From sequence record AF039873.1: 862 bases of DNA. One strand, 5' to 3'. The notes under the pieces are model-generated. The model was not told the origin of the DNA. It ran no database searches and was given only the letters and a program-made list of their open reading frames with translations. This document shows positions 1 to 834 of the stretch, piece after piece. This stretch comes from a phage. Numbering within the stretch: the stretch's first letter is position 1; each line of letters starts with the position of its first letter. Position numbers and translations under genes: made by a program.

Positions 1-5
1 TACCG

Positions 6-320
6 TCAGTGCGTTAAAACCACAGCGTACCCTGAAACACGGATAGTTAATTGAGGGTATTTTTCAGGATGTTTCTGTGCATCCAAAAGCTGATCACGAC
101 TTAACACATTGACATTTAGGTGTTGACCACCTTCAATTTGAGGGGCGACTTCCACTTTGACTTCACGAAAGGATTCGGGGTCAAAATGAGGTGTAATACC
201 TTCTAGATCTTCAACTAGAACTTTTTGTTTAAGTTCACCATCTTTAGAATATAATTGAGTAATCTGATTATTATGAACAATATTAATTACGCCAGATTTA
301 AGATTTTGATACGCTTTCAT
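6..320 (-). CDS. grcA: GrcA/YfiD-like autonomous glycyl radical cofactor (pyruvate formate-lyase C-terminal glycyl-radical domain protein), 104 aa, unusually short C-terminus
   Basis: Minus-strand ORF from the six-frame track. The segment [11 protein letters not shown]...[18 protein letters not shown] matches, from memory, the conserved glycyl-radical domain of E. coli GrcA and the PflB C-terminus, including the RVSGY signature (Gly codon at 30-32). Start placed at ATG 318-320 (Met26 of the track ORF) because AGGAG sits 5 nt upstream and 334-395 is occupied by a tRNA. Alternative starts GTG 393-395 and ATG 387-389 lack a convincing RBS. Stop TGA at 6-8. Confidence 0.85.
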
Positions 321-324
321 TAGA

Positions 325-330
325 TCTCCT
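325..330 (-). promoter_or_regulatory. Shine-Dalgarno (AGGAGA) for the GrcA-like CDS
   Basis: Minus-strand sequence ACC-AGGAG-ATCTA-ATG: AGGAG at 326-330 with a 5-nt spacer to ATG 318-320, beginning 3 nt after the CCA end of the upstream tRNA. Confidence 0.6.
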
Positions 331-333
331 GGT

Positions 334-409
334 TGGTAGTTAGTAGTGGATTTGAACCACTGTAGTCGCTCCGTATGAAGGAGGTGCATAACCACTCTGC
401 CAACTAACT
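334..409 (-). tRNA. tRNA with anticodon CAT (elongator Met, or Ile2 if C34 is lysidine-modified), 76 nt, CCA encoded
   Basis: Hand-folded cloverleaf on the minus strand: acceptor AGTTAGT/ACTAACT (7 perfect bp), D-loop containing GG, anticodon loop TTCATAC (U33, CAT, A37), T-arm AGTGG-TTCAAAT-CCACT (5 perfect bp, canonical T-loop), discriminator A, encoded CCA at 334-336. Irregularities: D-stem has only 3 Watson-Crick pairs (G13.A22) and C.C at 27:43. Not initiator-like: 1:72 is paired and the anticodon stem lacks three consecutive G-C pairs. Confidence 0.8.
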
Positions 410-425
410 ATTATGTTTTACTAGG

Positions 426-453
426 CTAAGTAAGTATTCTTTGTACTCCTTAG
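426..453 (-). other. Hairpin in the 98-nt spacer between the two tRNAs; possible processing or structural element
   Basis: Minus-strand RNA CTAAG-GAGTA / loop CAAAGAA / TACTT-A-CTTAG: about 10 bp including one G.U, with a 1-nt bulge. The same region on the plus strand has an A.C mismatch in place of the G.U, so the structure is better as minus-strand RNA. No U-tract follows it on the minus strand. Confidence 0.3.
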
Positions 454-507
454 ACCAACTAGCTTTTTTAAACTTTCCTGGGACGCATAAGTCTTAATTC
501 CTAGATT

Positions 508-584
508 TGGTACTCCGGGAGGGATTTAAACCCCCGATCTCTCGGTTATCAGCCGAGTGCTTTAGATCGCTAAGCTACCGAAGT
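508..584 (-). tRNA. tRNA-Ile (anticodon GAT), 77 nt, CCA encoded
   Basis: Hand-folded cloverleaf on the minus strand: acceptor ACTTCGG/CCGGAGT (7 bp, one G.U), U8, D-stem GCTT/AAGC, anticodon stem CTCGG/CCGAG (5 perfect bp), anticodon loop CTGATAA (U33, GAT, A37), variable loop AGATC, T-arm GGGGG-TTTAAAT-CCCTC, discriminator A, encoded CCA at 508-510. Confidence 0.85.
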
Positions 585-627
585 ATTAAAATATTACATC
601 ACACACTGTCTAAGTAAGAAGTATAAT

Positions 628-643
628 GGGAACTTAAGTTCCC
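628..643. repeat. Perfect 16-bp palindrome GGGAACTTAAGTTCCC (6-bp stem, 4-nt loop if folded)
   Basis: The sequence equals its own reverse complement. It lies about 45 bp upstream of tRNA-Ile in the minus-strand sense. No U/T-tract follows on either strand, so it is not a canonical intrinsic terminator. Confidence 0.6.
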
Positions 644-834
644 AGCCCTAACTACTTCTACTCAGTTCGAGGTACTTGACGAACACACCATAAATCATCC
701 TAAATCGGGTGCCCTAGCTGGTCATGATCCTTTGGGAAATACCTGTTGGACCGTTACTACTTTAACCCTCAAGCGATCTTACTAATTGTGTAACGAATCC
801 ACCGGTTTTACACACCTCTTGGGTCCCATCATAG

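Follow-up and report, generated by a model that had tools for sequence, protein, structure and literature searches.

The activity of pyruvate formate-lyase (PFL) that has been cleaved by O2 can be restored by small 'spare part' proteins. For YfiD (GrcA) of Escherichia coli and Y06I of phage T4, PMC8683613 (citing Wagner et al. 2001) describes how the PFL-activating enzyme (PFL-AE) installs a glycyl radical on the spare part and how the activity of the cleaved enzyme is regained. The article also covers the role of the radical glycine and assigns the structured half of YfiD to residues 61-127, a region that includes the C-terminal helix and docks into damaged PFL.

A protein of this type is also known from tequintaviruses. 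T5.056 of phage T5 (YP_006884.1, 122 aa) contains a Gly_radical domain and is annotated as 'putative acetyltransferase-related protein', and its homologs in DT57C, DT571/2 and Gostya9 appear as 'putative autonomous glycyl radical cofactor GrcA'. It is small and stands alone like GrcA/YfiD and Y06I, the latter being the phage-encoded case already known, and differs from both in its N-terminal half, which is poorly conserved or unrelated. A glycyl radical protein of the GrcA/YfiD type occurs in T5-like phages as it does in T4; it is already annotated in many genomes, and the gene is not new. By homology with these proteins, the T5 protein would be expected to act as a spare part that replaces the oxygen-cleaved C-terminal part of the host PFL.

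Here we describe the copy of this gene in an 862-base stretch of phage DNA (AF039873.1), analysed over its whole length and referred to as the window. Judged from its sequence, the gene is the tequintavirus homolog of the autonomous glycyl radical cofactor. As written, its reading frame stops shortly after the predicted radical glycine, a feature that is most probably a sequencing artefact.

The window and its glycyl radical reading frame

The window consists of tequintavirus DNA and covers T5.056, tRNA-Met, tRNA-Ile and the start of T5.058. All 440 records matched by megablast among 50,697 phage records are T5-like (Tequintavirus), and the best match is phage T5 itself, with 96.8% identity across window positions 4-775 and more than 99% over 22-592. 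The genes follow one another in the order and orientation seen in T5, namely T5.056, tRNA-Met, the small ORF T5.057, tRNA-Ile and T5.058. We took identity and synteny with T5 27.7-28.5 kb as the mark of the tequintavirus tRNA region; the window shows both and, by this comparison, is a piece of that region from bacteriophage T5 or a nearly identical tequintavirus.

The genes for tRNA-Met (CAU; 334-409) and tRNA-Ile (GAU; 508-584) lie on the minus strand and are identical to T5 tRNAM and tRNAI1. Rfam also reported 'Plastid-ycf2 5'UTR' matches on the plus strand at 336-409 and 510-584; these score about 26 bits against a gathering threshold of 65.7 bits, lie antisense to the tRNAs and were discarded as spurious. 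In T5, the tRNA region at 22.7-33.5 kb is dense in HNH homing endonuclease genes (hegC, hegD, hegE, hegF) and also contains the stable RNAs RNAI, RNAIII, RNA1, RNA2, RNA2H and RNAIV, to which no function is assigned. None of the heg genes or stable RNAs of this T5 region is found in the window.

The GrcA-like reading frame, the homolog of T5.056, occupies positions 6-320 of the minus strand, from an ATG at 320 to a TGA stop at 8-6, and encodes 104 aa as written. Its RVSGYAV motif begins with Arg94 (codon 41-39) and contains Gly97 (GGG, 30-32), the predicted radical glycine, whose counterparts in the alignments are G102 of E. coli GrcA and G734 of PFL. V100 (23-21) is followed by VLTH (20-9) and the stop, after which 5 bases remain to the end of the window. 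A previous reading of this DNA, made from the sequence only, had placed the end of the protein 7 residues after the radical glycine, and the codon positions bear this out. Compared by tblastn, T5.056 and the window ORF share 99 of 100 residues up to V100, the sole difference being I21T, which the window has in common with phB7. Beyond this point the two are out of frame, the window lacking one base after codon 100 and thereby reading VLTH-stop.

Among solved structures, the best match is E. coli GrcA/YfiD (6OWR, 127 aa; E 1.9e-19), whose glycyl radical domain is nearly identical. Residues 61-100 of the window ORF align to residues 698-737 of PFL (PflB; 1H16, 2PFL; 759 aa), the Gly734 loop included; set against PflB, the window protein is the radical-domain module alone and no full enzyme. 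The matches end at chain residue 105 of GrcA (6owr_A) and at residue 737 of PFL (1cm5/1h16), leaving 22 residues unmatched in each, in agreement with the earlier statement that both proteins run for about 20-25 conserved residues (RFNSLT...) past this point. Of the 106 positions in the Pfam profile Gly_radical (PF01228), 65-103 match the window ORF with 61.8 bits (E 1e-16) and 65-106 match T5.056 with 66.5 bits; the curated gathering threshold is 22.2 bits.

We defined the architecture shared by GrcA, YfiD and Y06I as a stand-alone protein of about 120-127 aa that joins a variable N-terminal half to a PFL-like radical domain. The window gene shows this small stand-alone layout with RVSGYAV, at 104 aa as written and 122 aa in close homologs. 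What the ORF as written lacks in comparison with GrcA/YfiD is the C-terminal segment of 22 residues, consisting of RFNSLT... and the C-terminal helix. This absence counts against the sequence record and not against the phage gene, the one-base gap being most likely an error.

A missing base at the start of the C-terminal segment

Alignment with T5 places the frameshift at window positions 20-21, where a plus-strand G is absent between c20 and c21, corresponding to the C of the Arg101 codon CGT. On the coding strand T5 reads GCT GTG CGT TTT AAC GCA CTG ACG CGT GAA and the window GCT GTG GTT TTA ACG CAC TGA CGG TA; on the plus strand, ...AAAAC-CACAG... of the window is aligned to AAAACGCACAG of T5. 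The junction is GTGGTTTTAAC in the window, with the C absent, and GTGCGTTTTAAC when a C stands between GTG and GTTTT. Because the missing C shifts the frame, the ORF ends in VLTH-stop and not in the normal 22 residues. A frameshift was among the options put forward earlier, and it is the one that the comparison upholds, with one base absent relative to T5 and the coding sequence colinear in another frame.

The earlier reading had held that the window does not show whether the missing segment is encoded further downstream. In fact its normal start, FNALT, is encoded on the minus strand at 18-4, one frame away (-1) from that of the ORF, where it was matched by tblastn; read in minus-strand frame 0, the first 45 nt give ...GFNALTV. 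Directly after YAV, the window contains the T5 coding sequence GTTTTAACGCACTGACG (FNALT), one base short, and the codons that remain after FNALT would fall outside the window. T5 goes on with CGT GAA, which the first three bases of the window (tac at 1-3; minus strand, gta) do not match. Two further one-base deletions would bring the sequences into agreement, TCACGCGTCAG against T-AC-CGTCAG, 3 nt being too few as proof.

Over positions 4-110, the window is separated from T5 and 11 further records by one gap alone (99.1%, 107/108), and the T5 gene has the same neighbours, tRNA-Met, tRNA-Ile and T5.058. Exactly one gap relative to the window is found in all of the best 60 listed phage records, and the deletion column is a G in 8 out of 8 tequintavirus genomes.

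A truncation next to a catalytic motif may also arise when a mobile element, such as a group I/II intron or a homing endonuclease gene, splits a gene at or after the glycine motif, as had been proposed for this one. The many HNH homing endonuclease genes of the T5 region (hegC-F) and the lack of colinearity at window bases 1-3 would fit such an event. However, what follows YAV is colinear T5 coding sequence, one base short and with no foreign DNA, and merely 3 bases are left unexplained, too few to point to an insertion. Rfam, searched with E values up to 1, finds the two tRNAs and no intron. The gene is also unbroken in T5 and 7 other tequintavirus loci, and the junction is continuous in 1580 of 1582 phage records. 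An insertion is very improbable on this evidence, and the earlier proposal can be set aside.

Differences from T5 along the window

Differences were counted after the window had been aligned to T5 globally, over its full length. Positions 1-21 contain three one-base gaps, two of them reconciling the ambiguous first bases. From 22 to 592 there are a single substitution (259) and two insertions of one base each (480 and 489), with zero indels in 22-479, and both tRNA genes sit inside this clean middle. A one-base deletion at 593 marks the beginning of a degrading tail (593-862), which contains the T5.058 homolog on the minus strand and departs increasingly from T5, with 9 differences in 601-700 and 26 in 701-800. 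From about 780 onward the comparison is near noise, with a weak residual colinear similarity to T5 (z = 2.9, 41 of 2000 shuffles). Under a uniform spread, finding at least 3 of 6 indels within the first 21 of 592 nt has a probability of P ~8e-4, the count including the two inferred gaps. Nearly all differences in the window are private and fall at columns where 8 tequintavirus genomes do not vary; the exceptions that occur in a relative are 259G (phB7), 727 and 765 (vB_StyS-LmqsSP1) and 768 (LmqsSP1 and ESCO40).

All three protein ORFs annotated in this stretch of T5 are out of frame in the window. T5.057 reads MRPRKV* as compared with MRPGKFKKASW... in T5, a frameshift caused by the first of the insertions at 480 and 489 (the ORF starts near 487). 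On the minus strand these turn CC into CCC and T into TT, and they are absent from T5 and 7 other tequintaviruses. Both lengthen short runs, which is a frequent form of base-calling error. T5.058 is scattered over three frames of the minus strand (596-862) in the pieces HYTSYLDSV, VRQVPRTE, MIYGV, FPKDH and VKVVTV; the intact protein has 96 aa and is called 'primosome assembly protein' in the annotation of some relatives. A recombinant or divergent right end was considered for this part of the window and rejected in favour of read decay, the best match to 590-862 being T5 (88.5%, with gaps) and the differences lying at invariant columns.

The U-shaped density of differences looks like that of one untrimmed single-pass read of Sanger type, a likeness we infer from the error pattern alone, and ORF anomalies near either end are therefore suspect. 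Because of this pattern over the whole window, the frameshift in the glycyl radical gene is most likely a sequencing artefact, and it appears highly probable that the early stop reflects a base miscalled close to where a read begins, at low quality, and is no property of the phage. In an untrimmed single-pass read of this kind, about the first 20 bases would be poor, some 570 clean bases would follow, and the remainder would decay progressively, mostly through one-base indels; in the poor part, base-calling could have dropped the C of CGT (Arg101) right after YAV, whereupon the frame would shift and the ORF would read VLTH-stop. The true gene product would in that case be expected to be the normal 122-aa protein. 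Two observations run counter to this explanation. Homopolymer runs are the commonest site of indel errors, and the deleted C lies outside any such run; moreover, position 20/21 adjoins the clean, indel-free sequence of 22-479.

The same observations would favour a real one-base deletion, private to this phage, that leaves either a pseudogene or a product of 104 aa which lacks the C-terminal helix and could probably not serve as a spare part. The sequence as given does contain the deletion, and under laboratory conditions the phage can presumably do without the gene. However, it lies 20 nt from the end of a sequence in which both ends are error-rich, possibly with two more gaps at 1-5, and two other ORFs within the same 862 nt are frameshifted as well, at columns invariant in all relatives. 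Added to this, no break occurs in about 425 near-identical records and no shortened protein among the 32 closest clusters. We thus regard a private mutation as unlikely, although it keeps some weight next to the base-calling error. Both explanations predict that T5 CGTGAACAGCAGAACGACGTTATTAGTCGTACATTTACTCAGGCGATGTAA and then the T5.055 homolog continue past window position 1.

Neither T5 nor any of the five closest clusters read (P0001-P0005) has the substitution at 259 (A to G, I21T), and searches for the 259G variant found nothing; it is present in Salmonella phage phB7. It is probably a genuine polymorphism and suggests that the source was a T5 variant and not the reference strain.

The C-terminal segment in homologs

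Homologs show whether the short form occurs elsewhere. In a collection of 5.8 billion proteins, the closest 32 clusters, with 84-97% identity, are all 122 aa long (32/32), and their alignment to the query, which takes in 96% of it, ends at YAV. The few shorter clusters that rank below them retain the RFN..../KFNSLT... C-terminal segment; P0039 (67 aa) and P0109 (95 aa) are shortened at the N-terminus, and P0033 and P0055 are internally duplicated. The junction itself was searched with a query of 45 aa across YAV|RFN, starting at L78. Coding runs through it in one frame in the 1580 of 1582 matching phage records mentioned above, T4-like and jumbo phages included, and none of the roughly 425 records that reach 95% identity to the query or more has a break. 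At the level of individual loci, an uninterrupted 369-nt CDS is called or annotated in 7 of 8 tequintaviruses; in the eighth, phB7, the gene is unannotated, with reading frame and C-terminus intact.

The frameshifted form was also looked for directly. Neither the junction GTTAAAACCACAGCGTACCC nor a longer 42-mer has an exact match in IMG/VR, JGI metagenome contigs or GTDB genome contigs, a lookup of the exact 104-aa product gave no match, and megablast against E. coli genomes and plasmids did not show the deletion elsewhere.

A naturally short GrcA variant had been suggested earlier together with its own test, the C-terminal lengths of the closest homologs, and it fails on the uniform 122 aa of their clusters. 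Related to it is the idea that programmed -1 ribosomal frameshifting at G GUU UUA completes the protein. Slipping back by one base on GUU UUA would bring the ribosome precisely into the T5 frame and yield a full-length protein with ...YAV-V-FNALT..., and A-site slippage from UUA to UUU is known in other systems. On the other side, in the collections searched no homolog is short and none has the sequence of the window. GGUUUUA is also not a canonical X XXY YYZ heptamer, as the P-site GUU cannot re-pair on GGU, and the T run is inherited from T5 CGT TTT AAC, with no conservation for a programmed event. Short variant and programmed shift are hardly credible at all.

Taken more broadly, a natural T5 variant that has kept the glycine loop and lost the C-terminal helix (or, more remotely, completes the protein by a -1 slip at the same site) is quite unlikely. 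If the deletion were true, it would mean either a decaying gene or a truncated module, one that might, for example, accept the radical from PFL-AE and not dock into damaged PFL; even so, an accessory gene would have lost its function through a mutation private to this phage. The case for a base-calling error carries a caution, in that the absence of a single base, 20 nt inside the sequence end, accounts for a truncation right after a catalytic glycine. Anomalies of gene structure near the ends of short records should be compared with near-identical reference genomes before mobile elements or short variants are invoked.

The cluster search also returned two metagenomic GrcA-like proteins, P0033 and P0055, in which the HLNVNV...PQLTIRVSG segment is internally repeated in tandem. 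The repeat may have arisen during assembly, or the radical loop may truly be duplicated.
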